Shown: piece by piece, positions 50-21,919 of the stretch
Position numbering within the stretch: the stretch's first letter is position 1
Layout of the letters: the number at the start of each line of letters is the position of its first letter
From: Anaerovoracaceae bacterium
GTDB lineage: Bacteria > Bacillota > Clostridia > Peptostreptococcales > Anaerovoracaceae
Direction: 5' to 3'
NCBI GenBank assembly: GCA_963676445.1
Contig: OY781100.1
Coordinates: forward strand, 1,300,104 to 1,332,103
DNA: 32,000 bases
Program-made: the position numbers and the translations under genes
The notes under the pieces: generated by a model
The model's input: only the letters and a program-made list of their open reading frames with translations
Databases searched by the model: none
What the model was told of the DNA's origin: nothing

Positions 50-346
50 ATGATGGCTATTACATTTAATCAAATTGGCAGCAAGTCGGACCTTCAGAAT
101 GCCAAACGATATGTGAATGCTTATCTGCGGTTATTCAACGAACCAGGAAACCTGAAATTTCTGTCATTTACCGGAATCCCTTTTAAGAGGGAGACCGTGG
201 AAGTATGGCTTCGCGACGCGGACGCTTCCGAAACCGAATATCATACCGCCATCGGCAAGAACGGTAAAATATGTGCGTTTTTACCTATAAATGACCCATG
301 CATGTGCGTTGGATCCCTTTTCGAACATAGTGGTAGATACAGCTGA
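50..346 (+). CDS. Hypothetical protein, possibly the 5' part of a host gene truncated at the element boundary
   Basis: ATG at 50 preceded by AAGGAG with a 5-nt spacer. The ORF runs 66 nt into the 3' end of the convergent gene 281..2917, so its last ~22 codons look like read-through into foreign DNA. No family recognised with confidence. Confidence 0.3.
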   Translation: MMAITFNQIGSKSDLQNAKRYVNAYLRLFNEPGNLKFLSFTGIPFKRETVEVWLRDADASETEYHTAIGKNGKICAFLPINDPCMCVGSLFEHSGRYS

Positions 347-2917
347 TTTGTTTGCAGTAACACGTGCATACGCTGCGTTATAGGGCGCAAGAGCTTTGAA
401 TGGGGAACTACCTTCTCTGCCGCTACCACTAATGAAAGTTTGTGTGCTATCATAATAAGCTACGAATCCCCAGACCTGCCCGCTCAAGCTATACATGTGA
501 TTTCCAGTCACCGCTATAAACTTAGAGCTTACATAATCCGAATCAGAAACTTCTGCACCGTTCGAAGTATCAATTCTGATATCAGCTTCTGTGTCAGCAG
601 AATTGAATAAGTTAACTACCGGAGGAGTCACTCCGGTATATGCGACAAAGGGATGTGCCACGTTACCTGTTTCTAACATAGTTGTAGTTGTCGTAGCCGT
701 CTGTACAGATGTACGAACATAAGCTGTATTTGATGGAGCAGTAGCTGTTAAAGGAGAATTTCCTTCAGCACCCGCAAGGTATTGAAAAGCTCCATCAAAG
801 AAGATCAGCCTACTCCATCCTCCGCCACTTACGATATAGTCTCCGGGCGTAGCTGCAATATAATCCGAACTATAATAGCCGTACTCTTCTTGCGCCCTGC
901 CATTATCGTTTCGAACAAAGTATCCAGATTCTGCCGTATTTGCATTAAATATATTTTCATACTCAGGCTCCTCTGGCTCTTCTCCAGTTCCACCATAGGG
1001 CTCGTATTCGGTCGCTTCACTGCCATGTTCCATCATTATTGTTTTAAGAAATTCTTTTTGGAAAGACACACGTGCTATACGAGCATAGTCGTTTGGAGCT
1101 TGCATAGTAAGCGGGCTGTCTCCTTCCACTCCATCCAAGAAGTTGTAATCCTTATCATAGTACGCTATTCTGGCATAGCCGCCTCCACTAACAGTGTAGT
1201 CGTTTCCCTCTATGACGGGCATGTGTGCTGAAGTGTAGTATCCCCCATCAGCAGTTTCTGCTCCAGTTTCTGTATTGACCCATATATTGGCCTTGACCAA
1301 TTTAGGATTCAGCATGTTTTTATGCAAATAGGAGTTTATGATGTTGTCCGTATAATAGAAGCGCTCGATTGCATATTGTTTAATCTGCTCCAAATGATCG
1401 GTGTCGTGGCTGGGTATATCCGGCCATGCCTCAAGATCTTTCTCGAATCTTTTATCACCAATGCTTCCCATGAACTCCTCAAATTCATTTATAATTCTTG
1501 ATGGATTTAAGGTTGTGTTTCTCAGCTCCATCCAGCGATCATAAATCTGCTGTGGATAATTAGCCCGCAGCCTTTCCCATAGCAATGAATTAGAACACAG
1601 GTACTCATCCATAAAGAGAAGCGCTGAAGAGTTGAACCCTTGTCCATCAAAAAACAATCCCCAGGTACTATCCATATCGTACATTGAAGGATACCACTTG
1701 GCTCCATCATACGTGATCATCAACAAGTTTTTGCCGAGACCATCATAGTGGCACATGGCAAGCGAAAAGAGATAATAATCTATGCAGGCTTCCAGATCAA
1801 AATGCTGACTAAATGTTGAAACAAAAGTTGCATCATTAGTATCGGTAACATGACTGATAGCCGCGTTAAAGCTCGCAAGTGTCTGCGGGTAGAGATCATC
1901 CGGAAATTCTAGTGACCAGTCAGTACCGTCTACTACAGCTGGTTCACTGAAGGCTCCTGCACCTGTGTGTGATTCTGCACATAAGATCGTATGGGTGGTT
2001 ATGTCGTCATCCAGATCAAACATCCAGCCATCCTTCGGAATATTCCAGGTGTATAAGCCTTGATACTCTCCATTTACATAGAGTTCAAATGGGTACCCAT
2101 CAATCGCACCGTAATTCGGAGAAGACATTATCAGCCGCGGGATATGCTCTCTGGAAGCTACCATCTCACCCCATAGCCTTGCGGAAACGATATTTCGCGC
2201 ATGAGAGTGGTCGATCCAGTTTGCCTTGAGACAGAATTTATTTTGCTTACCCCAATCATACATGTCCACCTTATACTTTTTATCAAGCGTTTCGTCTTCA
2301 TAGAGCTTTATCGTAAAGTTTTTCTTGGGATAAGCGATCGATGACGTACCTTGCCATTTGATTTTAAGTGCCCCCGAAAATGATCCGGTTCCGCTGACAT
2401 AAACAAAATCGGCAACCGCTTCCACTTCCTTTGTCGCAATTGAAATATCTCCCTCAAGATAGAGTTTTGGCAAGCTTTCTGAACTTTGCAATTCTCCGTC
2501 TGATTTTTGCATGATTTCTTCGTACATCCGGACGATTTCTTGATACTGATTTTCCGTTTCTGGTATTGCCGGGTCCGTTTCCACTCCGCCCCCGCTTCCA
2601 TATACCCGTACAACAGTGACATTTGTCGGGATATAGGCGCTGTCAGTACTTGAAAGCCAAACATACATCTCCATGTCTTTACGTGCTGCATGAGTCAATA
2701 CCTCATCTGGTACGTCACATATCCCGTTGCTGCCGACCGTCATAGGGACACTATGCATCGACCCTTCAATGATCTTTCCAAAATTCGCTGTTATGGTACC
2801 TGTGTATTCGTCCGGCAGCACAAAGCGGGCTTTGAGGTACCCCCGCGAGTTAGTTACCGGCTTTTCTGCATCTGTACGCTTTAACATCTGTCCTTTTACA
2901 CTAAATTCCAGTTGCAT
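281..2917 (-). CDS. CotH-like (atypical kinase fold) protein with phage-structural-type N-terminal module and three C-terminal beta-sandwich-like repeats
   Basis: 878-aa ORF with AAGGAG 7 nt upstream of ATG 2917. Residues ~195-525 carry CotH-family hallmarks as I recall them (KNFTIKLYED, ANWIDHSHARN, YVNGEYQGLYT, YDMDSTWG). The N-terminal ~110 aa (FSVKGQMLKRTD..VTNSRGYLKARFVLPDEYTG) resembles N-terminal modules of Firmicute phage minor structural/fibre proteins. Residues ~535-642, 655-762 and 768-878 are three homologous repeats (..Y.SGGG/SGQ..R(I/L)..(Y/F)D..F..G.EG.SP....AP.N.AY.R..). Confidence 0.7.
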   Translation of the reverse strand: MQLEFSVKGQMLKRTDAEKPVTNSRGYLKARFVLPDEYTGTITANFGKIIEGSMHSVPMTVGSNGICDVPDEVLTHAARKDMEMYVWLSSTDSAYIPTNVTVVRVYGSGGGVETDPAIPETENQYQEIVRMYEEIMQKSDGELQSSESLPKLYLEGDISIATKEVEAVADFVYVSGTGSFSGALKIKWQGTSSIAYPKKNFTIKLYEDETLDKKYKVDMYDWGKQNKFCLKANWIDHSHARNIVSARLWGEMVASREHIPRLIMSSPNYGAIDGYPFELYVNGEYQGLYTWNIPKDGWMFDLDDDITTHTILCAESHTGAGAFSEPAVVDGTDWSLEFPDDLYPQTLASFNAAISHVTDTNDATFVSTFSQHFDLEACIDYYLFSLAMCHYDGLGKNLLMITYDGAKWYPSMYDMDSTWGLFFDGQGFNSSALLFMDEYLCSNSLLWERLRANYPQQIYDRWMELRNTTLNPSRIINEFEEFMGSIGDKRFEKDLEAWPDIPSHDTDHLEQIKQYAIERFYYTDNIINSYLHKNMLNPKLVKANIWVNTETGAETADGGYYTSAHMPVIEGNDYTVSGGGYARIAYYDKDYNFLDGVEGDSPLTMQAPNDYARIARVSFQKEFLKTIMMEHGSEATEYEPYGGTGEEPEEPEYENIFNANTAESGYFVRNDNGRAQEEYGYYSSDYIAATPGDYIVSGGGWSRLIFFDGAFQYLAGAEGNSPLTATAPSNTAYVRTSVQTATTTTTMLETGNVAHPFVAYTGVTPPVVNLFNSADTEADIRIDTSNGAEVSDSDYVSSKFIAVTGNHMYSLSGQVWGFVAYYDSTQTFISGSGREGSSPFKALAPYNAAYARVTANKSAVSTTMFEKGSNAHAWVIYR

Positions 2918-3267
2918 ATTCTATCTCCTTCCTAAAAGTAAATTATGATGAGATTCGGGCTTACTCCAGAATCATCATCAGACTGGTGTAAATATAATCC
3001 TCCGGTAAATAGTCACTTTTACTTGACTTTTTTCCAGAATTGTTTTGCTTAATATAACGATTGTTATACGGCGTTTACAGATGTACGAAGTTCAACAAAA
3101 AATCATACATGAAGCCGTAAAATTATCCAGAAGTAAAGGCTATTTCAAAGGTACGCCTTGTTATGGTTTGTTCATGGTTTTCTGATTTATAAAGGAGAGA
3201 TTGTATATATTGCAGGTCTTTTCATCAGAAATTGTACCTTTGAACCATTCAATGAGCACATCGAGGT

Positions 3268-3609
3268 TTAGAAAGTTTTTATAACTGCCTTATATTCTAT
3301 AGATCCATAGAAATCAATTTGATAATTATTTTCTATTAAAAGTTTTAATAGAGTAGGGATCGCTTTGCTATAACGGAAATGCGCAGGATAGTGATTTGAA
3401 TACCATAGCCATGCATTTCCAACTAAACTAATCGCGCTATTTTCATTCTCAGGTATTGATTTTGGATAATGAATTGTGGGATTATATGCAAAATCCAGTC
3501 TTTCACCGGGAATACTTTTACTCTTGAGTATTTCAAGCATTTCAGGACAAATCGAAAATACCACTGTAAATCGTATTGGCCAACTCCCTCGGTATTCCAG
3601 CACACGCAC
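3268..3609 (-). CDS. Hypothetical protein (doubtful; may be non-coding or a gene remnant)
   Basis: 113-aa ORF with a GTG start and no convincing Shine-Dalgarno. It lies in an AT-rich spacer, with a TATAAT (minus strand) at 3637..3642. No family recognised. Confidence 0.3.
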   Translation of the reverse strand: MRVLEYRGSWPIRFTVVFSICPEMLEILKSKSIPGERLDFAYNPTIHYPKSIPENENSAISLVGNAWLWYSNHYPAHFRYSKAIPTLLKLLIENNYQIDFYGSIEYKAVIKTF

Positions 3610-3691
3610 TTGTAATGCGGTGAATTTCTAAAACCGATTATATGAAATTATGAATTCAATTGTTCCAGTGGGAAATGAAGACCTTACGCAG

Positions 3692-3721
3692 CAACCCCCG
3701 GTCAGCCGGGGGTTGTTTTAT
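3692..3721. terminator. Strong GC-rich hairpin, intrinsic-terminator-like (T-tract on the plus strand, A-tract on the other side)
   Basis: Perfect 10-bp stem CAACCCCCGG / CCGGGGGTTG (3692..3701 and 3706..3715) with loop TCAG, followed by TTTTAT on the plus strand. It lies about 30 nt downstream of the stop of the minus-strand gene 3744..3959, but the U-tract orientation fits plus-strand transcripts better. Confidence 0.6.
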
Positions 3722-3743
3722 GCCCATTAGAATTTCACTTGAT

Positions 3744-3959
3744 TTACTTATCATTCAATTTTTTGCACCGTTCCAAACGCTTTCCAAATATAACACCAAG
3801 ATTAAACGCTTTTAATATGACATCAAACAAGCCTGATTGCGGAAATTCCTGGGCTATTAGAATTAATTCGTCGTTAGCTTCCAAGGGATATTTTTGCAGT
3901 TCTAAAATTCTTACAAGTGATTCTTTATTTGTTATAGATAGTACAGAGTTCTTACTCAT
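3744..3959 (-). CDS. Small hypothetical protein (71 aa)
   Basis: Strong RBS (AAGGGGGGG, about 6-nt spacer) before ATG 3959, followed by the hairpin at 3692..3721. No family recognised. Confidence 0.6.
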   Translation of the reverse strand: MSKNSVLSITNKESLVRILELQKYPLEANDELILIAQEFPQSGLFDVILKAFNLGVIFGKRLERCKKLNDK

Positions 3960-4170
3960 ATTTAACCCCCCCTTAAATAAAAGCTCCCGGATCTTTATTG
4001 ATACGGTAATATAAATATCCTGCTACACAAGGGCTGTTTTTTTTGTAAAAAAATGTCGCATAATAAAAAATAATATAGAATAACATTGAATCTTAGGCGA
4101 ATCCGCATTTATATATCGAAATCCAGCTTACAATGCTTATATGTGACCTCTTTGCTTTAATACGACAATT

Positions 4171-4500
4171 TTACCCCTGCGGGGGTGTTGGTAAATTATT
4201 CAGTTTTTCAAGAAGCTCTTTAATTACACCGTTTCCTCCTAAATTGGTATATTGTTTAAACAGTTCCGCTACATTTTCCCTTTCGTAGATTGGCATTTGT
4301 CCTTTTTCCATATACTTATTATAAAGGTGGATGATTTCCGCTCTCAGTAGCGCCTGCACTCCCAGTTCGGTGGCGGCTTGCCTTGACTGCATTTTCTTGA
4401 ATTTAATAAATAACCTTGAAAAGATACTAAACAAAGCAGTCGCAGCAAGACCAAAGACCCATTCCAGCCAGTAACTCTGTATGTAAGACAATATTGGCAT
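4171..4500 (-). CDS. Membrane-anchored lysis-cassette protein (holin-accessory / holin-like), function uncertain
   Basis: 109 aa. N-terminal hydrophobic helix (WLEWVFGLAATALFSIFSRLFI), then a charged helical region ending ..YTNLGGNG..L..LP. It starts 4 nt after the holin stop. Topology and position are typical of accessory membrane proteins next to holins in Firmicute phages. Confidence 0.55.
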   Translation of the reverse strand: MPILSYIQSYWLEWVFGLAATALFSIFSRLFIKFKKMQSRQAATELGVQALLRAEIIHLYNKYMEKGQMPIYERENVAELFKQYTNLGGNGVIKELLEKLNNLPTPPQG

Positions 4501-4504
4501 AATT

Positions 4505-4717
4505 CTAATCCGAAATACCGGGAGTTGTCGGATTCACAACGATTCCAAGCCCAACAAGCAGATTTACCACCACGCCAATAACCTCACCCATTGTATCTTG
4601 TGATACAGGAGGTACAAACCCAAACATCCCAAGCATCTGATAAATAAACGCAACGACTGCAGTTGCAAAGCTTATAAGAAACGGCTTATTTTGTAATCTT
4701 GTCTTCCAGTCAATCAT
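4505..4717 (-). CDS. Small holin (phi-LC3 / Phage_holin_1-like)
   Basis: 70 aa with two hydrophobic segments (FLISFATAVVAFIYQMLGMFGF and VIGVVVNLLVGLGIVV). The N-terminal W..R..NK and C-terminal NPTTPGISD match my recollection of this holin family. RBS TAGGAGAAG. Directly downstream of the endolysin. Confidence 0.75.
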   Translation of the reverse strand: MIDWKTRLQNKPFLISFATAVVAFIYQMLGMFGFVPPVSQDTMGEVIGVVVNLLVGLGIVVNPTTPGISD

Positions 4718-4733
4718 ATCTCTTCTCCTATCT

Positions 4734-5477
4734 TTACTCTACTCCAAGCTTGTCCAACAGCTTCTTAATTACCCAAAACAAAGAGTTTTGCCCCGCTGTC
4801 AAGAGTTCCTTGTTATAAGACGACGTATCCTTTATGGGTATTGCTTCCAAAGTACGGCGATAAATATCTTTCTTTCCGTCAATTGGCTCTCTAACGGTAT
4901 AGTTACAAGCGAGTAATTTTTTAATTACCCACCAAACGGAACCATTATAGGCTTCGCTTAAGGCCGCAATCAGAGATTCCTTGTCATTGATGATTACAGC
5001 CGACGAGATCTCACCAGCCAGTTCCATTGCTTCTCTTACATGATTTGACTCCGGCTGTATATTTTCCAGATACGGTTGCGGATCAATGCTCACACCTCTC
5101 ACGATCAATTCAAAATGCAGATGTACCGCAACACTTAAAACCGATCTGTCAGAGGAGTTTCCCATTACCCCGAGAACGGCCGCAGCTTTCACCGGGGTAC
5201 CAACCGCCAGAGACGATCTGCGTTTCAGATGCTGATAAAGCGTTAGAAAGCCATCATGCTGTATTACGATCACCCACCCGCGGTATCTGTTCCAATAATT
5301 GCTTGTGACCTTACCTTTGGCTATCGCTAAAATTTTCGTTTCCGTCTTTGTCCAGTCCCTACCAAGATCGATGCCTTTATGATAGGTCGAGGCGCCTTTG
5401 ATTCCCGTATTTCTGGGGCCGAATTTCGAAGTGATCCGCAAAGGGCCGTCCACCGGCAAGCTGTTGAATTGGATCAT
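4734..5477 (-). CDS. M23/LytM-family peptidase endolysin with repeated C-terminal motif
   Basis: 247 aa. Carries the HxxxD (YHKGIDL) and HxH (VHLHFEL) zinc-site motifs of M23 peptidases in the first ~140 aa. The C-terminal ~100 aa contains two copies of an ..S(V/L)(W/F)WVIKKLL.. motif. RBS AGGGAGG, 6-nt spacer. Confidence 0.85.
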   Translation of the reverse strand: MIQFNSLPVDGPLRITSKFGPRNTGIKGASTYHKGIDLGRDWTKTETKILAIAKGKVTSNYWNRYRGWVIVIQHDGFLTLYQHLKRRSSLAVGTPVKAAAVLGVMGNSSDRSVLSVAVHLHFELIVRGVSIDPQPYLENIQPESNHVREAMELAGEISSAVIINDKESLIAALSEAYNGSVWWVIKKLLACNYTVREPIDGKKDIYRRTLEAIPIKDTSSYNKELLTAGQNSLFWVIKKLLDKLGVE

Positions 5478-5658
5478 GATATGCCTCCCTGATTGTGATT
5501 AAAGGGTATAAAAAAACAGCCTTGGTTGGCTGCGGTTCTATCTAAGCTTACACTTCATAGTATGTTTAGAAAAAGTGTTTTCAAGGTGAATACAATTACC
5601 CTTGAGTCTGATTAATTCTCTTATTATCATTGATTCCTATTTGAACTAATTTGACATC

Positions 5659-5763
5659 TTAATCAACACTAAGTTCAGTTTTGTACGGTTCTGGTACATT
5701 ATCAATCGTAATGCGCCCCATGTCCAACAAGAACTTGTATAATCTCAACAATCTTTCATCCAT
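5659..5763 (-). CDS. Unlisted 34-aa ORF, XkdX-position small tail-cluster protein (tentative)
   Basis: My own translation: ATG 5763 (3 nt after the stop of 5767..6078, with GGGGGTG upstream) gives MDERLLRLYKFLLDMGRITIDNVPEPYKTELSVD and stop TAA at 5661..5659. Its size and position after the fibre-assembly-like gene match the tiny XkdX-type genes of PBSX-like clusters. Similarity is not verifiable here. Confidence 0.4.
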   Translation of the reverse strand: MDERLLRLYKFLLDMGRITIDNVPEPYKTELSVD

Positions 5764-5766
5764 TTC

Positions 5767-6078
5767 TTACACCCCCAACTGCAAACTTGCAAGATCAGCG
5801 ACAAGCTGTTTCAGTTCTTCGATTTGCTGCTGTGGTGTTTTGGGTGCTTCTGTGCCGACTTCATACCATCCGCGATCAGCATCATATTCAAAGTCTCTTT
5901 CTTCTTCAATTACCCCCTCCGGTAGCGGATTTATTTCCTTATCTTCGAATACCGCTTCTTTAAGGATATTGCCTTCTTCGTCGTATTCAGCAGAATTAAT
6001 TTCAACTGGCTGTTTTTGAGAGTCCCATTCCCCAATATTGATAATCTCTCCATTCAAGATATAGCATTTCTTTATCAT
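5767..6078 (-). CDS. Small acidic tail-fibre-associated protein (assembly/chaperone-like)
   Basis: 103 aa from ATG 6078, which forms an ATGA overlap with the fibre stop. The ORF-track start at 6099 is also possible. C-terminal coiled segment QQQIEELKQLVADLASLQ. Positioned directly after a fibre gene. Confidence 0.55.
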   Translation of the reverse strand: MIKKCYILNGEIINIGEWDSQKQPVEINSAEYDEEGNILKEAVFEDKEINPLPEGVIEEERDFEYDADRGWYEVGTEAPKTPQQQIEELKQLVADLASLQLGV

Positions 6079-6902
6079 AATGAATTTACCGCCTTCCATC
6101 CTGTATTACCAGTTCCAGTTTGCTTAATATATTCCGTCGTATTCGTTCCACCATCGGTACGAAAATATGTCGTTCCAGGGAAGGCTGTTACGACGCCTTC
6201 CGGCGCGCCGGAACCATGAATTTTATCAATTCTCTTATATGTTGAATTGATTACATCATGCAATTGAAGTCTATAATCGTCATACATTCGAAGAACATAT
6301 ATTTCGGAATCATTTTTAACCAATTGCATAACTGCCGCGTTTCCACCACAACCATAACCCGCTTGATATATACTTCCAGAAAACAAACGCTTGGCGATAA
6401 ACGGAACATATACGGTTGTTGTATCAGATCCAATTACAAGCGAAGACGTTAAACTGCCGTTATCCATCGTTACCGATTCACGCCATGCAGTCCAGCCGCT
6501 TGAGGTTCCATTCGTATTTGTTCTAGTGAAAACACGAACGACAGATGTTATAGAAATAAACATTTGAGTTACAACCGTTTCAGCACTCCCTGTCGCTCCA
6601 TCCGTTGTACTTGCTACCCACGGAAATACCAAGAGACTCCCACCGCTGGTTATCGGTGCATTTGTAGTGCCGCTTGAAACGGAATAGAATCCCTCAGTCA
6701 AGATATTATTTAAGTCTCTGCCGTTCACACGTTCAGCATATAACATACTGCTGATTAAGTTGCTAGCTGTGTCAATCTCGTTCATGTGGCTCTTCAGTTC
6801 TTCATCTAGTATATCCCAGTTGGCATTTGTAACCGAAATATCCGGTGGACTATCCTCTAATTCCGATTTTATAAAGCCATAATTTATTGTTGTTGTCGCC
6901 AT
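6075..6902 (-). CDS. Tail fibre / receptor-binding protein with knob-like domain (cassette 2)
   Basis: 275 aa. The N-terminus (TINYGF....D....N.NWD.LD) is shared in pattern with the fibres at 9340..10398 and 22795..23829. DLNNILTEGFY...TNAP...GWTAW resembles pyocin-knob-type domains. The C-terminal G.P.G...A.PG..Y......Y.K.....GW motif is common at phage fibre tips. Confidence 0.7.
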   Translation of the reverse strand: MATTTINYGFIKSELEDSPPDISVTNANWDILDEELKSHMNEIDTASNLISSMLYAERVNGRDLNNILTEGFYSVSSGTTNAPITSGGSLLVFPWVASTTDGATGSAETVVTQMFISITSVVRVFTRTNTNGTSSGWTAWRESVTMDNGSLTSSLVIGSDTTTVYVPFIAKRLFSGSIYQAGYGCGGNAAVMQLVKNDSEIYVLRMYDDYRLQLHDVINSTYKRIDKIHGSGAPEGVVTAFPGTTYFRTDGGTNTTEYIKQTGTGNTGWKAVNSL

Positions 6903-6994
6903 ACCTCATCACTCTCCTTTAAATGATTTGTCAAGAAAAATTAAATCATAAAACTTCTTCAAATCTCACTATGTTCAAACTGACAAAACCTCTA

Positions 6995-7783
6995 TTAAAG
7001 CGCAATATAGTCATTGACAGCCTGCCAGTCATCCAAAGAAGCAACTACTGACCAATCGGTAAAATTGTCCCGAATATCCTGCCATGTTGCAAAATACTTG
7101 ATCACCCCTAATTTAATATGACTTGGAACAAGAGGTCCTAACGCCCTGGCAATATCGGTGTATCGGTAATTTTTCGTACTATCCGGGCTCAATACCTCCA
7201 CTCTTAAAAAACCATGTCCCAATTCAGGATTAAGCGATTCATCCGAACCAAAAAAAGTTATTATGCAATCACTACCGGAGATTGCATTAACAATGTTTTT
7301 AATCGTGGCTTCATTAATCTTACTCCCTTTCTGGTTGAGCGATACGAGATAGCTTTTTCTTTGTTCCAGGGTGCCCAGACCTTTCATGTTTAAAAATTTT
7401 TCAATTCTTATTATCGAATCATTTGAAGCGGAGACAATGAAATTATTCGATTTAATCTTCTCTACCTTGGAGTGCAAATCATCAATATTTGCATTTTCAA
7501 TATGAAAGATTTCCGCAAACTCTTTTGTCTCCGATATAAAATCCGGCACATAGGTTTTAAGTTCGGAAGTCTTTTCAGTTCTAATAATCATATCCAAATA
7601 AGTCTCATATAAGTCGCTAGAACTGTTTAGGATAGTGATTTCGCCGTCTTGACTCACAATCAGCGTCAATAAATAATTACCTGCCACACTTGGAGCCTCA
7701 TCAGGTCTAATCCATGTACCCTCTCCATTATTCTCCAAAGTGTAAGTTATTCCGTTTACGCTGTACTGAATGTAATCAATCAT
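6995..7783 (-). CDS. XkdU-like (DUF2313 / P2 gpI-like) baseplate protein with N-terminal extension (cassette 2)
   Basis: 262 aa with an ATGA overlap onto the upstream baseplate-J gene. The C-terminal half (..LGPLVPSHIKLGVIKY..TW..) parallels the KPAHL.Y.F.YT.W ends of the other two XkdU-like proteins in the window. The gene is markedly AT-rich (a sampled line is about 27% G+C). Confidence 0.6.
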   Translation of the reverse strand: MIDYIQYSVNGITYTLENNGEGTWIRPDEAPSVAGNYLLTLIVSQDGEITILNSSSDLYETYLDMIIRTEKTSELKTYVPDFISETKEFAEIFHIENANIDDLHSKVEKIKSNNFIVSASNDSIIRIEKFLNMKGLGTLEQRKSYLVSLNQKGSKINEATIKNIVNAISGSDCIITFFGSDESLNPELGHGFLRVEVLSPDSTKNYRYTDIARALGPLVPSHIKLGVIKYFATWQDIRDNFTDWSVVASLDDWQAVNDYIAL

Positions 7784-8820
7784 GGTGCCACCACCGTTAA
7801 TTCGATATCTGTTAATACAGGTATTTCATCCCCACTTAATAATATGTCATCCGTTCCAGAGTTCACTGTTAAGCTTCTAAGATCTGCTATAGAGGCACAA
7901 TCCAAAAGAGTGCTTCCGATTCTCATATAACTCACACTATTTTTTACATATGTAATTGATGCCAAATAATCCGCTACTGACTTTGCAGCATCGGTTGCTT
8001 CTGTGTATCCTTCAGCCAACGTGATATCTGCAGCTACCATTATGTTCTTCTGTGTGCCGCCTGTTACAGTAGCTTTACTTCCAATAGGCGCAGCCCCTTT
8101 TCCCAGCCCCGAAACGCCTGGATCTAGATATTCCTGAAATGCTGTTACTAAAGCTGCCTCTGCCGGTAAATACTGCCCATTGGTTATTGCAATTTTAACT
8201 GTATTCCCGCCATTCCAAAGAGGAAATACTTTTGCTGCTCCAATGCCTTTGAATGTGGCTGCCCATTCCAAATATTGAGCCACATTTCCCTCTTGCGAAG
8301 GATTAATTATATAAGCTCTAACGCGATCTCTTAAGGCATCATCCGTTTCTTCATCAGTTCCCGAGATAATAATATCCGCCAACAACGCAGTTACTCCGCT
8401 TACATTATCAATATTTTCAAGAGTACCGCTATAGGCGTTGCCAATCACACCTGGTTGCTCACATTCTGCACTATATACGTTCGTTGATAGGAATTGCTTA
8501 ATGATATAAGTTGTTTCACTCAACCCCCATCTCGTGCCGAGATTAACCGGAGCCGTTGTTTCGATTTTTCTCACTGCTCCAGTTGCGCTTTTTCGAGTTT
8601 TGCCGTAATCTGCAACCTTCTTATCCAGATAGACTCCAACAGCGGTATCCAAATAGAAAAGATCAGCATAATTGTTAAGATTAAAATATGTTTCTGCTAA
8701 TTTATATGCGCAGGGGGCAATGGCATCATAGATAATGCTGCCTTCCCGCTTATCGATATCGGAGTTCACCCTGCTTAGCATATCAGACAGGATGTTTTCA
8801 TAGGTCATTTCCTCAAACAT
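7780..8820 (-). CDS. Baseplate J-like protein (XkdT-like), second copy in module B
   Basis: 346 aa. Roughly 60% identical by eye over the first ~210 aa to the protein of 10951..11970 (MF..TYE..LSDMLSRV.SD.DKREGS.IYDA.APCAY.LA.TY.NLN...). RBS GGGGG before ATG 8820. Confidence 0.85.
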   Translation of the reverse strand: MFEEMTYENILSDMLSRVNSDIDKREGSIIYDAIAPCAYKLAETYFNLNNYADLFYLDTAVGVYLDKKVADYGKTRKSATGAVRKIETTAPVNLGTRWGLSETTYIIKQFLSTNVYSAECEQPGVIGNAYSGTLENIDNVSGVTALLADIIISGTDEETDDALRDRVRAYIINPSQEGNVAQYLEWAATFKGIGAAKVFPLWNGGNTVKIAITNGQYLPAEAALVTAFQEYLDPGVSGLGKGAAPIGSKATVTGGTQKNIMVAADITLAEGYTEATDAAKSVADYLASITYVKNSVSYMRIGSTLLDCASIADLRSLTVNSGTDDILLSGDEIPVLTDIELTVVAP

Positions 8821-8901
8821 AGTGATTACCCCCTTTTTGTATTAGGTATTCTTCTAATCAGCGGTTGTTTGGTTTATACTAACTTGTCGGCTTAGTCAAC
8901 A

Positions 8902-9327
8902 CTAAGCTGATTCTAACTCATTGATTTCTGTTCTCCATGCTTGTCGTTGTGTAATAACGTCAGCATATTCTTCTACTGTTGCCGACCCTTCAGCAATCTT
9001 TATAACTGCATAATCTGTTTCGGCAAGTTTCTGTTTTAATTCTTCAATACGAGAAGCATTTTCAATAACGGTTAATTCAGATCCCTTTTCTTCATCTGTT
9101 CTTTCTGTCTTTACTCCATCCACAAGCTTGTAGTTATAACATCCATTTTCATCTATCAAACCTTTTTCAAGATAGTTCCCTTGTGGATGAGTATATTTGG
9201 GGTCTTCTACACCTTCATCAATCTGCATCCAGCCTGTTAAGTCTTTCGGTGGATACATACCGCCTTCTATTGCAATAATTCTGCTCGCTGTATCCGTCTT
9301 TACATATACAATGTAATTGTCTTCCAT
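8902..9327 (-). CDS. Small tail-fibre-associated protein (assembly/chaperone-like), cassette 1
   Basis: 141 aa with RBS AAGGAGG, 12 nt after the fibre stop. Acidic, with a C-terminal coiled segment (RIEELKQKLAETDYAVIK..). Positioned like XkdW-type genes. Confidence 0.55.
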   Translation of the reverse strand: MEDNYIVYVKTDTASRIIAIEGGMYPPKDLTGWMQIDEGVEDPKYTHPQGNYLEKGLIDENGCYNYKLVDGVKTERTDEEKGSELTVIENASRIEELKQKLAETDYAVIKIAEGSATVEEYADVITQRQAWRTEINELESA

Positions 9328-9339
9328 ACCATTTCCTCC

Positions 9340-10398
9340 TTACAGTTCCGCTGATACAGCAAATACATTAATATTATCGTTACAGGCATAAGGTCTATAT
9401 TGAGTTACACCAGTAACAGTGAAAACAGCATTAAGTCCCGATGGTGTAACACTTACCCATGTTGTTGCCATAGAAGGTATATTGCCAAGTGAAAAATGTG
9501 GGTATTGGAGGACGCTAACAGTAGGTGTAGTTCTCATCTTAACTGGAAATCCAAATGATACCCAAATTCCTGTAGCGCTTTCAGCGAATCCAACACCAAT
9601 CTGCTTTACATCTATGATTTGATAATACCTCTGGCACAACGCCAACTGCTCACCGTAATCTACTGGAGGATCGTTGGCAAGGGTAGATACGGAGCCAAGT
9701 TCGAGTTTCCAGCGGTATATATCAATGTCAATGGAACTTTCCAGTGTATTCCCGCACAGTATTTCAACTCCGAAATTCGTGACATCAACAGCCGGAGTGA
9801 AAGTATACGTCACATACGATTCAATTCCAGGAGTAACTGCTGAAATTAAACCGCGACCGTTGCTACCACTAATGGAACTGTACATTGAATCACATGGTCT
9901 GAGTACTAGGGTTCCAGATCCCGCATTCATCTTGCAATGAAGCGTCAAAGTGTAGGTTTGTCCGGCCCGAAGCATCTTTTCTGTAAACTGTATTATTCTT
10001 TTATAGTTTGCTATTGTATTTGATGTAAAATTAATGAAACCATCAAATACTGTTACAGTGCCCAGCATTATTTTCCAGCGATCAATAGCCTGAGCCCATG
10101 TGACTGTTGAAATATAACTGTCCTGCATTTTCTGATTCACTAATGCGTTTACAAAATCCCAATTATGCAAGAGGTTTCCGTTTGGAGATGCTGTTTTGTC
10201 AAGCTTAGTGCTGACTAAGTCCTCAAGCGCACTATCCCCCGCTGCCCTGGCAGCAGCCTCTGACGTGATGGCATCTGCATTCGCCTTTAGTGCAGAATCA
10301 ATCAATTCATTGTCATTATTAAAGTCTTCTCGTTTTATGTAGTCGTTCCCAAGCCATTGGTTCAGCTCATAATTTATTGTTTTATTTGTGCTTGCCAT
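9340..10398 (-). CDS. Tail fibre / receptor-binding protein (cassette 1)
   Basis: 352 aa. Has the fibre-type N-terminus (INYELNQW...D.N.N...ID) followed by alanine-rich coiled coil. Also contains ..DRW.. and WKLELGSVSTL....Y..QLALCQRYY, a motif I recall as widespread in phage tail-fibre proteins. Confidence 0.75.
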   Translation of the reverse strand: MASTNKTINYELNQWLGNDYIKREDFNNDNELIDSALKANADAITSEAAARAAGDSALEDLVSTKLDKTASPNGNLLHNWDFVNALVNQKMQDSYISTVTWAQAIDRWKIMLGTVTVFDGFINFTSNTIANYKRIIQFTEKMLRAGQTYTLTLHCKMNAGSGTLVLRPCDSMYSSISGSNGRGLISAVTPGIESYVTYTFTPAVDVTNFGVEILCGNTLESSIDIDIYRWKLELGSVSTLANDPPVDYGEQLALCQRYYQIIDVKQIGVGFAESATGIWVSFGFPVKMRTTPTVSVLQYPHFSLGNIPSMATTWVSVTPSGLNAVFTVTGVTQYRPYACNDNINVFAVSAEL

Positions 10399-10949
10399 TA
10401 CGATACCTCCTTGTAAACTTCAAACTCATCCCATGTCAGGTTCATCGCATCCCATTGGCCGCAAGTTTTACCGTAACCTTCAAATTGATTCCAGGTAATC
10501 CAGGTGTATTCAAAGGTATATGTTAAATGCGCGGGTTTGATTTGCTCAATTGTTGAAATAAGATCACTCATGTTTTCCGGAATACCCAACATGCCAACGA
10601 ACTTGATGTTAAAACTATGATTAGGCGGCTCTTCCGTTACTTCAACTTTGCCTTTGGAATAGGCGGCGGCAGTCTCAACGATCATTTGTTTTGTCACCGT
10701 CCCGATCCCGATCGCCTTAGCCTTGATTCGCTCTCTTCTGAATGTGTCACTCTTAGATGTGATCACCGCAAGCCCGAATATTTTCTCATACCTGCTTAAT
10801 AAACTCGACGAAGTAGATGCAAAGCATTCGTTCATCATTTTGCCAAAATCATCATACAATTCGGTGGCCTCTTCATTTATTATGATCTGCAATTCTTCCA
10901 TTGTGGTATTGCCGTCATAAATTGGCGGCAATAAGTCAAGAAAATCCAT
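10398..10949 (-). CDS. XkdU-like (DUF2313 / P2 gpI-like) baseplate protein
   Basis: 183 aa. N-terminal LLPPIYD and C-terminal IEQIKPAHLTYTFEYTWITW, as in the XkdU/YmfQ family. Immediately follows baseplate J. Confidence 0.7.
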   Translation of the reverse strand: MDFLDLLPPIYDGNTTMEELQIIINEEATELYDDFGKMMNECFASTSSSLLSRYEKIFGLAVITSKSDTFRRERIKAKAIGIGTVTKQMIVETAAAYSKGKVEVTEEPPNHSFNIKFVGMLGIPENMSDLISTIEQIKPAHLTYTFEYTWITWNQFEGYGKTCGQWDAMNLTWDEFEVYKEVS

Positions 10950-10950
10950 G

Positions 10951-11970
10951 TCACTCAGCCTCCGTTAGTGATATCATTCCAACAACCGGGATATCGGTAT
11001 CTTCAATGGTGATATTGGCAGTTCCTCCGTTAATTCGCAGCATATCATAATCTTGAACACCTGCCGTATCCAGCAGTAAGCTTCCAACCCTCGCGTAGCT
11101 GATAGAATAAGTAACAAATACGGTGCTCTTAAGGTATTCTTCAACAGAAGCTATAAATTCCGCTTGTACAGCGTTAAAAGTCTGTGATCCATTCAATAAG
11201 ACATTTGCGGAAACATTGATCGTCAGGCCAGAAGGACTGTCCACCTTGACTTCCGCCCCGATGGGCCTAACTGTTTCAATATAAGGAGCTACCGTGTCAG
11301 GTAAAGTTTCGTCAATTGTCATATCGCTGTCAACCACAAGAACTTTAACGGTTCCTGCTCCTCTCCAAAGAGGGATCACCTTTGCTTTTCCAACTCCGGG
11401 TACATCAAGTGCCCATTCTCTATAATTATCGGCATTACCTGATGTGCTAGGGGCTTGCACCCTCATATAGAATCTCTCTCTCAGCTTGCCGTCTGTTTCC
11501 TTTTCGGTACCGGCCGTTATAATATCTGTTAGAACAGCCGATACTCCGTTTACATTGTCTATATTTTCAAGCGTACCGTTATAGCCGTTCCCTATATCTC
11601 CCGGCTGTTCACAAATCGCTCGGTAGACATTGGAAGAGATCAGTTCTGTAACCTTATAGGTGGTATCACTTAAACCCCATCTGGTTCCGATGCTTACAGC
11701 TCCATTTGTTTCAATTTGCCTTATGGCAAAAGTCGCCGCTTTTCTGGTGATTCCGTAATCAGCCACGACCCGGTCAAGATATTCGCCCACTGCCGTATCA
11801 CCAAATACAAGGTCAAGAAAATGATTGAGATTGTAATAGGTCTGAGCAAGCTCGTATGCGCAGGGAGCTAAAGCATCGTAGATCACACTTCCTTCTCTCT
11901 TGTCCACATCGGATTTAACACGACTGAGCATATCACTTAGCAATCCTTCATAAGTTTTATCCGCAAACAT
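10951..11970 (-). CDS. Baseplate J-like protein (XkdT-like), first copy in module B
   Basis: 339 aa. Size, position after the XkdS-like gene and conserved N-terminal region are typical of the Baseplate_J family. Paralogous to 7780..8820 and, more distantly, to 28076..29122. Confidence 0.85.
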   Translation of the reverse strand: MFADKTYEGLLSDMLSRVKSDVDKREGSVIYDALAPCAYELAQTYYNLNHFLDLVFGDTAVGEYLDRVVADYGITRKAATFAIRQIETNGAVSIGTRWGLSDTTYKVTELISSNVYRAICEQPGDIGNGYNGTLENIDNVNGVSAVLTDIITAGTEKETDGKLRERFYMRVQAPSTSGNADNYREWALDVPGVGKAKVIPLWRGAGTVKVLVVDSDMTIDETLPDTVAPYIETVRPIGAEVKVDSPSGLTINVSANVLLNGSQTFNAVQAEFIASVEEYLKSTVFVTYSISYARVGSLLLDTAGVQDYDMLRINGGTANITIEDTDIPVVGMISLTEAE

Positions 11971-12368
11971 CAGACATTCACCTCTTTTGTTATCGTAATT
12001 TCTCCGTAAATGCTGACAACCTCGAAGGTACAGCGCATCTGATCCCCTGTCACTTCATAATTAAAATTGTCTACACTCTCAATTCGGTCGTCCCGAAGCA
12101 AGCACTCCTGAATTCTTCTTTTCAATTCGACTTTTACATAAGCAGCGTCCTTACCGATCAGGCTGTCCAGCTCGATCCCATAAGAGAAGCTATAAATCTG
12201 ATATTCGTACTTTTCCGTATTAAGCACCTTATATATCGCCTGCTTTAATGCGTCCAGTCCGTCCACATAGCCCTGAATATTCGCCTCTTCCAGTTTATAG
12301 GTCCTGCTTGTACCGATGGTTTCATGAATCGTTATATCCTCTGGGATTAATGCCGCAGGTGTTGTCAT
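11970..12368 (-). CDS. XkdS-like (DUF2634, gp25/W-like) baseplate protein
   Basis: 132 aa. Sits between the XkdR-like and baseplate-J genes with overlapping stops/starts. Size and order match PBSX xkdS. Confidence 0.6.
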   Translation of the reverse strand: MTTPAALIPEDITIHETIGTSRTYKLEEANIQGYVDGLDALKQAIYKVLNTEKYEYQIYSFSYGIELDSLIGKDAAYVKVELKRRIQECLLRDDRIESVDNFNYEVTGDQMRCTFEVVSIYGEITITKEVNV

Positions 12369-12598
12369 TGGTTAATCACCTCCAGAATGTAGAATTGCTG
12401 CCCTCCATGATTTCGCAGCAATCTCACTTTTTGTCCATTGATTAGCGATGATTTCAGGTTTCCGATCACCAGTTCATCCGGCAAAACCAATTTGTCATTT
12501 ATTTTAATGCCGCCGCTTGTTACCGTGCCCGTCATTAAACAACAAAGCGCCGCCGTATTCAGGTAATTCTGTACGACGGTTTTAATTTCATTTATCAT
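12365..12598 (-). CDS. XkdR-like (DUF2577) small baseplate/spike-associated protein
   Basis: 77 aa with ATGA overlaps on both sides. Size and order match PBSX xkdR. Confidence 0.55.
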   Translation of the reverse strand: MINEIKTVVQNYLNTAALCCLMTGTVTSGGIKINDKLVLPDELVIGNLKSSLINGQKVRLLRNHGGQQFYILEVINQ

Positions 12599-13533
12599 AT
12601 TGAAACCTCCATACTCATGGTATGTACCGGCAGAAAATTATGCGTCACTGATTTTACGATTAAATCCCGACCTAGCTTGATATCATTAATCCGTGCGTAA
12701 AAACTTGTTCCCGCTCGAACGCTTGTATCGCCAAGGCAGTCAAGGCTCAGACTCTCAACCTCATGATTATACAATTCCAAAAGTTGATCCGCTAAGTCTT
12801 TTACCTTTGCAGAATTAGCATTATTATCCAGTTTCATATAGTTTTGCATTAAGCCATATCGAGAGATGGAATTACTATCCCTTACAATATAGGTATCATC
12901 TTTTCCACTGGTATCATTTCTGCTCACAAGCTTGATCTGATTATAGAATTTATCATCAATTGATTGTTCATAGCTGAACCCATATACCATACTTTCATCG
13001 CCCAGGACCAGACTCAACCTTAAATTTTTGAGGGTTCTAAGTGCTATCTTTCCGAATTCATCGCGCAATACATATTTTTCACTCAGATGATCCCAAGTCT
13101 CGTTGATTCCGGAATATATAATATCAAGCCAAGTCTTATCGTATTGCAAACTGGTAGTCAGTATGTAGCCGGAATCGTCAAGAACTCCGACTTTCAATCC
13201 CAATGTAGCACACATTTTTTTTACCAAAGTCGTTACCGTATTTTCTTTAACGAGAATCGTATCCTTGGTTTTACAATATCTTAATTGATCGTAGGCAGTC
13301 ACGTTGATTTCTTTCCCTTTTCCTCTTCCATGTTTGAATACAAAGCCATAAAAGATTTTTGTGCCTTCGAACTCAAAACTGACAGCACTGCCGTTTGTTA
13401 TAATAAGATCATCATTTACATAAGTAAATTCCAATTTGCTGCAGCCACCATTTAAACTATCTCTATAGGATACTTTTGTCACCAGCTCACTTATTTCATA
13501 ATACGTACCATCAACAATTACTAAAAATTTCAT
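12595..13533 (-). CDS. XkdQ-like baseplate hub protein (gpD-like)
   Basis: 312 aa. Follows the LysM protein, with RBS GGTGAAGGA. Size and order match xkdQ/yqbQ-type hub proteins. Confidence 0.7.
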   Translation of the reverse strand: MKFLVIVDGTYYEISELVTKVSYRDSLNGGCSKLEFTYVNDDLIITNGSAVSFEFEGTKIFYGFVFKHGRGKGKEINVTAYDQLRYCKTKDTILVKENTVTTLVKKMCATLGLKVGVLDDSGYILTTSLQYDKTWLDIIYSGINETWDHLSEKYVLRDEFGKIALRTLKNLRLSLVLGDESMVYGFSYEQSIDDKFYNQIKLVSRNDTSGKDDTYIVRDSNSISRYGLMQNYMKLDNNANSAKVKDLADQLLELYNHEVESLSLDCLGDTSVRAGTSFYARINDIKLGRDLIVKSVTHNFLPVHTMSMEVSI

Positions 13534-13544
13534 TCCTTCACCGC

Positions 13545-14213
13545 CTACTCAGGTATGGTCAAAACCTGACCAGGGTAAATCAGAGAAGGATTCTTGATTT
13601 TATCCTTATTTGCGTTGTATATTTTAGTATATTTAGATCCATTACCGTATTGTACCTTCGCAATCGCCCATAACGTATCCCCGCTCACAACCGTGTATGT
13701 TCCAGAGTTCTTGGGATTAGTCTCTTCAGTAGCAGCGTTAACTTCCGGAACAATATGCAGTACAGAATCCACTAAAGTCAGCTGCTGCTTTTTTCCGTAA
13801 GGCTTATATTCAAGCAGGGAAAGCGATACGTATTTATCACCCTCTTCTCCAGCCCGTTCCGTTATATCCAAGTCCTTAATCAGCACCAACGTATTAATGT
13901 CATCACCAATACCATTTGTAGCAATAAAACGGACCGGGGTAAGCTTCTTGCGCCATCTTTCGAATTTTTTCAAATAATAGTCTGCATCTTTAAATTGATT
14001 GGGCGTTTCCACATAGCGATAGGGTTTTTTAGGAAGTTCACAGTCGAATGAATACTCTTTTAATTCCATTCTAGTCGGAACTGCAATCTGATCCAGACCC
14101 AGCACTTCATATTTCTCCACCGAAAGAGAACTTTTCACTTTTATTTCATCCGGGTTAACAGGCAGCCGGTAGGTTCTGTTTTTATAATCGAAGAAGATCG
14201 CATAATTACTCAT
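13545..14213 (-). CDS. LysM-domain tail protein (XkdP-like)
   Basis: 222 aa from ATG 14213 (RBS GGAGAGGGGG). The ORF-track start at 14240 would overlap the tape-measure end. C-terminal LysM: YTVVSGDTLWAIAKVQYGNGSKYTKIYNANKDKIKNPSLIYPGQVLTIP. Confidence 0.85.
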   Translation of the reverse strand: MSNYAIFFDYKNRTYRLPVNPDEIKVKSSLSVEKYEVLGLDQIAVPTRMELKEYSFDCELPKKPYRYVETPNQFKDADYYLKKFERWRKKLTPVRFIATNGIGDDINTLVLIKDLDITERAGEEGDKYVSLSLLEYKPYGKKQQLTLVDSVLHIVPEVNAATEETNPKNSGTYTVVSGDTLWAIAKVQYGNGSKYTKIYNANKDKIKNPSLIYPGQVLTIPE

Positions 14214-14214
14214 C

Positions 14215-15936: not shown

Positions 15937-16133
15937 CACCTTTTCCTCCCTTTCTTCGGTATATTTTTCGGAGCATGCTTCTTTTCTTCCTCTACGCGTA
16001 TTATGATACTCCCGTAAATAAACGCTTTTTCCTCGTGGCTCATGGAGCACAGTTGAGAAGGAAGGATATGCAATTTTTGAAGGGCAAAGTGCGCAAGATT
16101 GAAATCCGCATCACCCTGCCTTATTCGTTTTTT
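15936..16133 (-). other. -1 frame extension of the tail assembly chaperone (predicted frameshift product, G/GT-type)
   Basis: My own translation: after a slip on A_AAA_AAC, the -1 frame is open for 63 codons (RIRQGDADFNLAHF...KNIPKKGRKR). It stops at TGA 15938..15936, overlapping the tape-measure ATG. Confidence 0.65.
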
Positions 16134-16525
16134 ACTTCATCAATGTCCTTGTTAATGTCCTTGTCAAGCCCGCTCAGCTCCTGAACCGCCTGCGCAAGAT
16201 TTGCAAACTCGCCGATCAGCAGCATGTTCTTGAGGGTCTCCGATTCCCCCAGACCATACTTATCCTGAAGCTTTGCATCGGAAAGGTCAGGCTCGACAAC
16301 GGCGCAAGCGGTCAATGCCTGGACATACTCCGTTCGATTAAAAGTCTCCACGCCCTTTTTGTCGGTCTTTGTAAATTTCTTGATCAGCTGTTCATTCTCT
16401 TTCTGAGTAATGGGCTTTATGATAAACGGAACCGGATTACCGCCTTCGCCTATAAAACGTTCCGAAACAATAACCTCTCTGTTTCCTAGTTGTACCGGAT
16501 TTAAAAATGCTTTTAATGAACTCAT
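16121..16525 (-). CDS. Tail assembly chaperone (XkdN-like), zero-frame product
   Basis: 134 aa between the tube and tape-measure genes. The sequence (MSSLKAFLNP....V.VSERF...G.P.PF.IK.IT..E...L) fits my recollection of the XkdN family. A slippery site lies at its 3' end. Confidence 0.7.
   Translation of the reverse strand: MSSLKAFLNPVQLGNREVIVSERFIGEGGNPVPFIIKPITQKENEQLIKKFTKTDKKGVETFNRTEYVQALTACAVVEPDLSDAKLQDKYGLGESETLKNMLLIGEFANLAQAVQELSGLDKDINKDIDEVKNE
16127..16133 (-). promoter_or_regulatory. Canonical -1 programmed ribosomal frameshift heptamer A_AAA_AAC
   Basis: The plus-strand gtttttt at 16127..16133 reads AAAAAAC on the minus strand. In the chaperone frame it reads GTA AAA AAC GAA TAA, which places the X_XXY_YYZ site one codon before the stop. 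Confidence 0.7.
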
Positions 16526-16578
16526 TCTCGTATACCTCCTGAGTTATGAATGAAAGAAAGGAGCACAAGGCTCCTTTC

Positions 16579-17055: not shown

Positions 17056-17070
17056 TGTTTTATCCCCCTT

Positions 17071-18117: not shown

Positions 18118-18135
18118 GATTAATCCTCCGTTTCA

Positions 18136-18552: not shown

Positions 18553-18694
18553 GTGTTATCACCTTCTTTACAAGTTCCGTTTAATACGAAACAACTTATG
18601 TCTAATCTAATGGCTAAGGATATGACATTCGAGGCGCCTCCTCATTAGCAACTAGTAACTATTATTCATCAATGTTTACTGCTGCTCTATCTAC

Positions 18695-21669: not shown

Positions 21670-21677
21670 AAAGCCTC

Positions 21678-21911: not shown

Positions 21912-21919
21912 CCTGTCTC

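Follow-up and report, generated by a model that had tools for sequence, protein, structure and literature searches.

The gene described here is a single open reading frame (ORF) at 281..2917 on the minus strand of a 32,000-nucleotide (nt) stretch of contig OY781100.1 from an Anaerovoracaceae bacterium; hereafter, "the window" means this whole stretch. The gene lies at one end of a phage tail element and encodes a protein of 878 amino acids (aa), in which a CotH kinase-fold domain with an intact active site is placed between a small N-terminal module (the N-module) with a helical neck and three C-terminal repeats of a type found in phage tail fibres. On balance, we favour the reading that this is an accessory tail-fibre-type (receptor-binding-type) protein, which would bring an active CotH enzyme to the surface of the target cell via its triple repeat, and we hold it with some confidence but not with a high one. 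Particle attachment, glycan binding, the substrate and the chemistry of the product are parts of this reading that we infer. The gene and its domains are laid out as follows:

281..2917, minus strand: CotH-bearing ORF, 878 aa, made of N-module, helical neck, CotH kinase-fold domain and three repeats.
2924..2933, minus strand: ribosome-binding site aggaaGGAGA, read from the sequence, 6 nt before the ATG (2915-2917).
2573..2917, minus strand: N-module, residues 1-~115; beta-sandwich model (Ig/FN3-like, low confidence).
2495..2554, minus strand: predicted alpha-helical neck, residues 122-141 (QYQEIVRMYEEIMQ), common to all four N-module homologues.
1328..2470, minus strand: CotH kinase-fold core, residues 150-530; the Pfam match, residues 186-519, corresponds to nt 1361-2362; predicted local distance difference test (pLDDT) score of the model above 90.
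1727..1744, minus strand: catalytic loop D392-G-L-G-K-N397, equivalent to B. subtilis CotH D228 and to PKA D166 and N171; invariant in 75 relatives.
1670..1681, minus strand: Y413-D414-M-D416 motif, equivalent to B. cereus W245-D246-Y-D248, and to B. subtilis D251 and PKA D184; invariant in 75 relatives.
992..1324, minus strand: repeat 1, residues 532-642; beta-sandwich model, pLDDT ~80-90.
635..961, minus strand: repeat 2, residues 653-761; from BLASTP and a repeat hidden Markov model (HMM).
284..616, minus strand: repeat 3, residues 768-878; from BLASTP and the repeat HMM.

This layout agrees with an earlier note made from the letters alone, which had described an 878-aa ORF with a good ribosome-binding site, a CotH-type centre and three C-terminal repeats. 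The core of the ribosome-binding site is aGGAGa at 2924-2929.

Regarding the central domain, the Pfam family PF08757 matched residues 186-519 with E=2.7e-30 and 106.4 bits against a cutoff of 23.8, and the match covered profile positions 1-318 of 322. We built an AlphaFold2 model of the product on an alignment of 75 relatives, and its pLDDT was above 90 for residues 150-530. The best Foldseek matches of this model were the B. cereus CotH structures 5JD9/5JDA (E=1.5e-16, TM 0.79 target-normalised, 15% identity), followed by far lower matches to PI3K and HipA kinase folds, and so both the profile search and the structure search give CotH. Sequence searches of the PDB with the single protein (phmmer) or with a 23-sequence profile did not reach 5JD9. 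The chain sequence of 5JD9 was retrieved with a B. subtilis CotH sequence as bait, whose residues 228 and 251 are Asp, in agreement with PMC7821199; the PDB sequence alone was used as evidence and the profiles were aligned locally.

In the profile and hhalign alignments, D392-x4-N397 falls opposite the 5JD9 stretch 'DGFVHN', which corresponds to B. subtilis D228 and to PKA D166/N171. Furthermore, the profile alignments place Y413-D414-M-D416 opposite the 5JD9 stretch 'WDYD', with D414 equivalent to B. subtilis D251 and PKA D184, and they make Y413 and F300 the equivalents of W245 and Y142, the residues that stack on adenine in B. cereus CotH (PMC12189002). The B. subtilis CotH mutants D228Q and D251A are inactive (PMC7821199). 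No variation is seen at D392, N397, Y413, D414 and D416 across the 75-sequence alignment of relatives, and the F300 position is aromatic in the family consensus. The earlier note had left the state of the catalytic residues to be checked: D392, N397 and D414 are all present, together with the aromatic residues Y413 and F300. As read from these alignments, the CotH active site of the ORF is intact, and catalysis itself is only predicted.

The three repeats are clearly related to each other. Pairwise BLASTP between them gave E values of 3e-18, 6e-19 and 1e-19 at around 35% identity, whereas the controls against the N-terminal 530 aa gave E>=0.2, and the repeat HMM found each copy with an E value of 1e-46 to 1e-51. 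The skeleton that the earlier note quoted (SGGG..R..YYD..F..G.EG.SP...AP.N.AY.R) can be seen in the repeat alignments. Residues 531-878 had no Pfam match at E<=10. With the same residues as query, an exhaustive HMMER search gave 964 representative clusters; their proteins are typically 500-1500 aa long and have 2-6 copies of the module in tandem. All the repeat-module proteins that we sampled (9/9) matched phrog_11541 and most of them also matched other tail-fibre, neck or virion-structural PHROGs; moreover, five of the nine carried a GDSL/SGNH esterase domain and one of the nine a SASA sialate-O-acetylesterase domain. The repeat module of the window matches phrog_11541 and phrog_19519, and the module recurs in proteins that match the tail-fibre PHROGs 4201, 38670, 18023 and 6782. 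Its matches in cultured phages are annotated as tail fibres (Klebsiella phage S9a and Streptococcus phage Javan384). With the model of repeat 1, Foldseek returned GDSL tail proteins, the tail fibre of Enterococcus phage EFP01, a lactococcal neck-passage structure and the crAss001 tail fibre. Judging from these matches and from the model, the repeat module appears to be a standard surface-binding building block of phage fibres, which normally stands beside a glycan-modifying enzyme. In ORF 281..2917 this enzyme slot is held by CotH.

At the other end of the protein, the first ~115 aa make up a beta-rich module of their own, and the predicted helix at residues 122-141 comes after it. The N-module matched phrog_19695, a family of unknown function, with E=4e-8; it had no Pfam match at E<=10 and no tblastn match at E<=1 in 50,697 cultured-phage records. 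An N-module with 36% identity was found in the IMG/VR contig L009, where it is a stand-alone ORF of 182 aa whose overlap with the start of a 647-aa ORF is 4 bp. The 182-aa ORF is preceded by a 381-aa ORF, and genes for an XhlA-like protein, a holin and an amidase lie downstream, which places it inside the tail-fibre cluster. Word-index homologue searches with the 126-aa N-module and with the L009 ORF returned nothing beyond the queries. The L009 ORF is the only independent homologue of the N-module, which is rare. The N-module is plausibly an adaptor.

In order to see where such genes usually lie, we looked at the relatives. The full-length search gave 2545 matches, in which the CotH core recurs in thousands of gut and rumen metagenome proteins. 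Of the nearest relatives, two (P0002/P0003, 59% identity) have the same N-module, CotH and one repeat; another one (P0004, 53% identity) has BppU_N, CotH and two repeats; P0005 has a different N-terminus, CotH and one repeat; and further relatives carry Phage_fiber_rpt, collagen, Big_2 or Laminin_G_3. The P0004 gene occupies the classical position of a fibre gene in a contractile-tail prophage: Baseplate_J, Wedge1 and Gly_rich_2 precede it, and XhlA, holin and amidase follow. In the Lactobacillaceae phages R3.3 and JNU_P11, a large protein of the tail module has CotH as its last domain, and the holin and the lysin are encoded downstream. We also surveyed 40 non-redundant IMG/VR loci, taking three ORFs on each side of the CotH gene. 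The upstream ORFs of these viral loci contained Prophage_tail (10), NlpC/P60 (4), BppU_N (3), YQBQ (2) and collagen (2), and the downstream ORFs contained holins (9) and PG_binding_1 (4), and also Amidase_2, CHAP, GH25, LysM and integrases. Since tail domains lie upstream and holin or lysin genes downstream, the usual place of CotH in viral loci is the last tail position before lysis. These cases agree with the earlier note, which had found a position after the lysis genes odd for a structural protein.

Nevertheless, the post-lysis order recurs. In the closest relative, L005, a holin is followed by a glucosaminidase endolysin and, after a gap of 27 bp, by CotH, and this order speaks for the N-module subfamily being the last gene of the late operon and not a host gene. 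A tRNA-Ala(GGC) lies ~760 bp downstream of CotH in L005 (3898-3970), where host-like LysM/GH18 and DnaJ genes follow, and this tRNA is likely the integration site of the prophage.

The GTDB relatives have an identity of 45% or less, they come mostly from metagenome-assembled genomes of gut and rumen Clostridia and their neighbours are ordinary cellular genes. N-termini resembling signal peptides were found in 58 of 76 chromosomal relatives, in 147 of 606 control ORFs and in none of the 40 viral proteins. The product of ORF 281..2917 has no export signal. The earlier note had stated that CotH domains are found in secreted or surface-located proteins as well, and this holds here, where most of the chromosomal relatives look exported. 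Because bacteria export the CotH core and phages fuse it to tail adaptors, action at the cell envelope is indicated, and from the sequences the clade appears to act outside the cytoplasm.

As a separate observation, the viral contigs L058-L063, L067 and L078 encode proteins of ~1650 aa that end with the CotH domain. An ORF of ~870 aa with the same repeat module lies directly after the CotH ORF in L058, L060-L063 and L078, so that CotH and the repeats are there on separate polypeptides.

Coming back to the window, the earlier note had placed the gene beyond a lysis cassette, and the Pfam and PHROG scans located this cassette and the other features around the gene:

4734..5477, minus strand: M23 peptidase endolysin (Pfam/PHROG scan); the lysis cassette is 4171..5477.
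4505..4717, minus strand: Phage_holin_1 holin (Pfam/PHROG scan).
4171..4500, minus strand: phrog_4105 membrane protein (PHROG scan).
2918..4170, minus strand: low-GC (0.35, computed) spacer of 1.25 kb from the lysis cassette to the CotH gene.
3744..3959, minus strand: 71-aa ORF in the spacer, with a strong ribosome-binding site, also called in the related strain L003.
~3690-3716, minus strand: GC-rich hairpin after the 71-aa ORF; it scores as a terminator for the opposite strand only.
50..346, plus strand: GNAT acetyltransferase gene, cut after codon 76 (alignment to L003).

The spacer and its 71-aa ORF had no Pfam or PHROG match and no Rfam match near any family threshold. The earlier note had mentioned an att site between 2918 and 4170 as a sign that the gene would belong to the host chromosome; neither a tRNA nor an att-like repeat was found there, and no tRNA, att-like repeat, Rfam element or repeat of a diversity-generating retroelement (DGR) was associated with the CotH gene. 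The GC content of the CotH gene (0.43-0.44) is that of the element and only the spacer deviates. The window spacer may be a later insertion. The promoter-like sites in the spacer are weak (9/12) and they total 21, against a mean of 14.4 +/- 3.0 in shuffled sequences, that is, around 2 standard deviations above.

The comparison with L003 was informative for both sides of the gene. The CotH protein of this strain is identical and the gene differs by two synonymous changes in 2637 bp (0.8 per kb), whereas 43-82 differences per kb separate the two strains within the M23 gene and past it. Furthermore, the stretches 5673-6746 (the 3' part of a fibre gene and a small downstream ORF) and 9285-10194 of the window cannot be aligned to L003 at all, while their flanks are 94-99% identical. 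These two differences are typical receptor-binding cassette swaps; the CotH gene, by contrast, is near-identical.

On the other side, L003 has an intact 167-aa GNAT gene 428 bp downstream of the CotH gene, and bases 1-276 of the window are 100% identical to the 5' part of that gene. When L003 12638-13618 was compared, 700 bp of L003 turned out to be absent from the window. One end of this deletion lies 5 bp away from the stop codon of the CotH gene, and the truncated GNAT ORF of 98 aa that it leaves overlaps convergently with the 3'-end of that gene. We had also considered the GNAT fragment at 50..346 as one of two copies of an att-like core, and we rejected this idea, as L003 is a different, related strain and the window simply lacks the 700 bp.

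Taken as a working mechanism, the favoured reading would run as follows. The element that carries the gene would be a PBSX/XkdK-like contractile-tail prophage or tailocin of a Clostridia-like host. The N-terminal beta-sandwich and the helical neck would serve as an adaptor that anchors the protein to the particle or oligomerises it, the CotH domain would occupy the place that SGNH/SASA esterase heads hold in related fibres, and the three tandem beta-sandwich repeats would bind the cell surface, probably a glycan. The protein would be made late in the cytoplasm and, having no export signal, it would leave the cell at lysis. At the surface of the target cell, CotH would then perform a modification of the phosphoryl-transfer type on a component of the envelope. 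A narrower proposal is that the phage CotH enzyme, either particle-borne or released at lysis, phosphorylates or transfers phosphate to a glycopolymer of the target-cell surface, steered by the triple repeat, and that the glycan may contain nonulosonic acid, as NeuB and cytidylyltransferase genes lie in the same array. We regard this narrower form as unlikely.

Several observations weigh against the fibre reading. The CotH gene is outside the tail module, 1.25 kb past the lysis cassette and behind a spacer with a small ORF and a hairpin, and because these intervene, co-transcription with the late genes is only putative. The earlier note had seen in the N-terminus a module of phage minor structural or fibre proteins. 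The phrog_19695 match and the homologue in the L009 tail-fibre cluster document this weakly; however, homology to a known docking domain did not appear, the comparison with BppU_N being not significant (hhalign probability 2%, E=0.024). There is also no paralogue of the N-module among the tail proteins of the window, and its model is of low confidence (pLDDT 59) and matches only generic Ig/FN3 domains in Foldseek. Something similar happens with the repeats, which had been described as carbohydrate-binding-like beta-sandwiches. The beta-sandwich model stands, and the module is indeed one of tail fibres and necks, but the likeness to carbohydrate-binding modules (CBM) is weak: CBM16 (2zey, 3oea) and a domain of the glycopeptidase Amuc_1438 were matched by Foldseek with E~0.05-0.07 and a probability of 0.8-0.99. 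This fold comparison refers to repeat 1, as repeats 2 and 3 gave no AlphaFold2 model. Regarding the enzyme, a composition scan of the real ORFs of the window found no Ser/Lys/Arg-rich substrate similar to CotB/CotG, and the signal-peptide counts given above come from a crude heuristic. Finally, a kinase requires ATP and extracellular ATP is scarce. The supply of ATP is the main difficulty of any extracellular kinase model.

Alternatively, the protein could be a soluble factor freed at lysis and acting outside the particle, whose repeats would bind the glycans of neighbouring cells or debris and whose CotH domain would modify these glycans, for instance masking or destroying receptors, which would spare the loss of progeny on dead cells. 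The gene does come after the lysis genes both in the window and in L005, the N-module is not demonstrably a docking domain, the protein is without a signal peptide and its chromosomal relatives are free exported proteins. However, the N-module and the neck occur within the tail-fibre gene cluster of L009, and the relatives whose N-termini are BppU_N, collagen or fibre repeats are plainly virion-type proteins encoded in the tail module; we therefore think that a soluble factor is somewhat improbable, although it deserves a real share of the probability. The scarcity of extracellular ATP could also mean that CotH does not catalyse at all and only binds or scaffolds, as proposed for the fungal CotH invasins, in which case the protein would be a plain receptor-binding fibre. 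The Mucorales CotH proteins act as adhesins and are the subject of papers on virulence, and CotH is placed here where fibres bear binding or enzymatic heads. Yet all the known catalytic and ATP-contact equivalents are present and five of them are invariant in 75 diverse relatives, which is unexpected for a pure binder, so this explanation seems to us an unlikely one.

A different kind of explanation takes the gene out of the particle and its release. It could be a moron or lysogenic-conversion gene, or encode a cytoplasmic kinase with its own expression from the prophage end, which would phosphorylate host or phage proteins for takeover, exclusion or assembly control. The place between the lysis genes and the end of the element is typical of morons, the AT-rich 1.25-kb spacer has promoter-like sites, the gene is near-identical between strains (0.8 per kb), in contrast to a tail region that has 43-82 differences per kb or has been exchanged, and Roux et al. 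speculated about host-signalling roles for viral proteins with a CotH domain. We nevertheless judge it quite unlikely, because two thirds of the protein are a fibre-type adaptor and surface-binding repeats, the chromosomal relatives are mainly exported and not cytoplasmic, the L005 gene is 27 bp from the endolysin and therefore a member of the late operon, and the GC content of the gene matches the element. The spacer, the differing pattern of divergence and the strain-specific 700-bp deletion that touches the 3'-end would also fit with an orphan remnant of another, degraded phage, functionally unlinked to the element. This is very improbable in our opinion, as the ORF is intact over its 878 aa, both differences between the strains are synonymous and the order of lysis genes and then CotH is also found in an independent relative at 59% identity.

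The protein can be compared with several known systems. It shares with Bacillus CotH (B. subtilis; B. cereus 5JD9/5JDA) the Pfam family, the atypical kinase fold (TM 0.79) and the active-site equivalents, but the identity is ~15% and the window protein adds fibre-type modules at both ends. In contrast to the cotB-cotG-cotH module of the spore coat, its neighbours are phage tail and lysis genes, with no CotB/CotG-like ORF in the window. Spore-coat CotH works inside the mother cell, whereas the cellular members of the clade of the window protein look exported. As for the tail fibres and neck appendages with SGNH/GDSL or SASA domains (PHROGs 11541, 19519, 27126, 4201 and 38670), they have the same repeat of ~110 aa in 2-6 copies beside an enzyme, and the difference is that the enzymatic domain here is a kinase fold and not a carbohydrate esterase. 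The design also resembles that of TP901-1-type BppU, with a small N-terminal beta domain, a helical neck and distal modules, and the relative P0004 has a genuine BppU_N; the N-module of the window, however, is without significant similarity to it. Regarding kinase folds that work outside the cytosol, there are the Fam20 kinases of the secretory pathway, and CotH has been called a distant relative of Fam20C. Fam20B and POMK are kinases with sugars as substrates. For the window protein we obtained no sequence or fold match to Fam20, and thus the likeness is a functional speculation.

Phage CotH proteins have been recorded before. Those of the gut virome were called 'currently unstudied' (Benler 2021, PMC8008677), a viral DGR target family with a CotH domain was listed as PC_00012 (Roux 2020 preprint) and the 'domain group 3' proteins of Bacteroides DGRs have CotH too (2024 preprint). 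Catalogued entries are PHROGs 9391, 28731, 9915 and 27151, and in GenBank 'CotH kinase protein [Caudoviricetes sp.]'. With the gut-virome proteins, the window protein shares a CotH core in a large modular protein with domains of carbohydrate-binding type or Ig-like domains. However, the examples in the literature are targets of DGRs and end in a hypervariable C-type lectin, whereas the window protein has a C-terminus of three repeats, a rare N-terminal adaptor and a gene placed after the lysis genes. Actually, we found no long direct repeat of the template/variable type involving the CotH gene, no C-type-lectin match in the ORF (Pfam, including matches at E<=10) and no reverse-transcriptase family among the window ORFs scanned. 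ORF 281..2917 is thus a member of an already recorded group; what is new is the combination of domains and the unusual position, and it is not a new kind of protein.

Alone, the locus adds one member to this catalogued group, and it is a compact example, free of a DGR, in which the boundaries of the modules are clear. Phage tail fibres carry hydrolases, lyases and esterases that act on surface glycans, and for a kinase fold that has its active site fully conserved and stands in the enzyme position of a fibre, we know of no role. If the chemistry became known, it would matter for the host range of phages in Clostridia-rich microbiomes and for the function of the secreted bacterial CotH proteins. 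If the phosphorylation of a glycopolymer were true, phage tails would turn out to carry a new class of activity that modifies receptors, beside depolymerases and esterases, and a very large clade of bacterial CotH proteins, most of them exported, would have its first function.

Regarding the rest of the element, all its genes are on the minus strand, and it consists of two XkdK/PBSX-like contractile-tail modules in tandem:

21920 to beyond 32000, minus strand: tail module B.
4171-18552, minus strand: tail module A and, behind it, the lysis cassette; the module opens with the tail terminator at 18552, goes on with sheath, tube, tape measure and two Baseplate_J/gp48 pairs and closes with the fibre gene at 6075..6902.
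6995-8820 and 10398-11970, minus strand: the two Baseplate_J and Mu_gp48-like pairs of module A, each of them followed by its own putative fibre genes.

The two Baseplate_J/Mu_gp48 pairs might offer docking for more than one type of fibre. No head, portal or terminase gene was found within the 32-kb window, and there is a single lysis cassette, after module A. Therefore, the two-module locus could be a tailocin-like array or a prophage with its head genes beyond the window. The sheath of the window is closest to the sheaths of Clostridium tetani phages, with 37-41% identity.

Between the two tail modules, at 18695-21747 on the minus strand, there is a block with a GC content of 0.34-0.36. It encodes a NeuB-family nonulosonic/sialic-acid synthase (E=2e-68) and, besides, a cytidylyltransferase-like ORF (a weak match), a SPASM/radical-SAM protein and a transketolase-like ORF (also weak). 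Only three records of the phage collection have NeuB, which makes it very rare there. The block may relate to the glycosylation of the fibres or to the surface glycan of the host.

Two further observations concern other parts of the element and of the related strain. In L003, the region 13777-22637 downstream of the CotH and GNAT genes contains at least six small ORFs of Nif11-type leader peptides and an insertion sequence element with an rve integrase, and it is probably a locus for a ribosomal natural product or bacteriocin. In module B of the window, the 1223-aa tail-fibre gene contains a 300-nt direct repeat (25478-25777 and 26237-26536), 96% identical and with a spacing of 759 nt.

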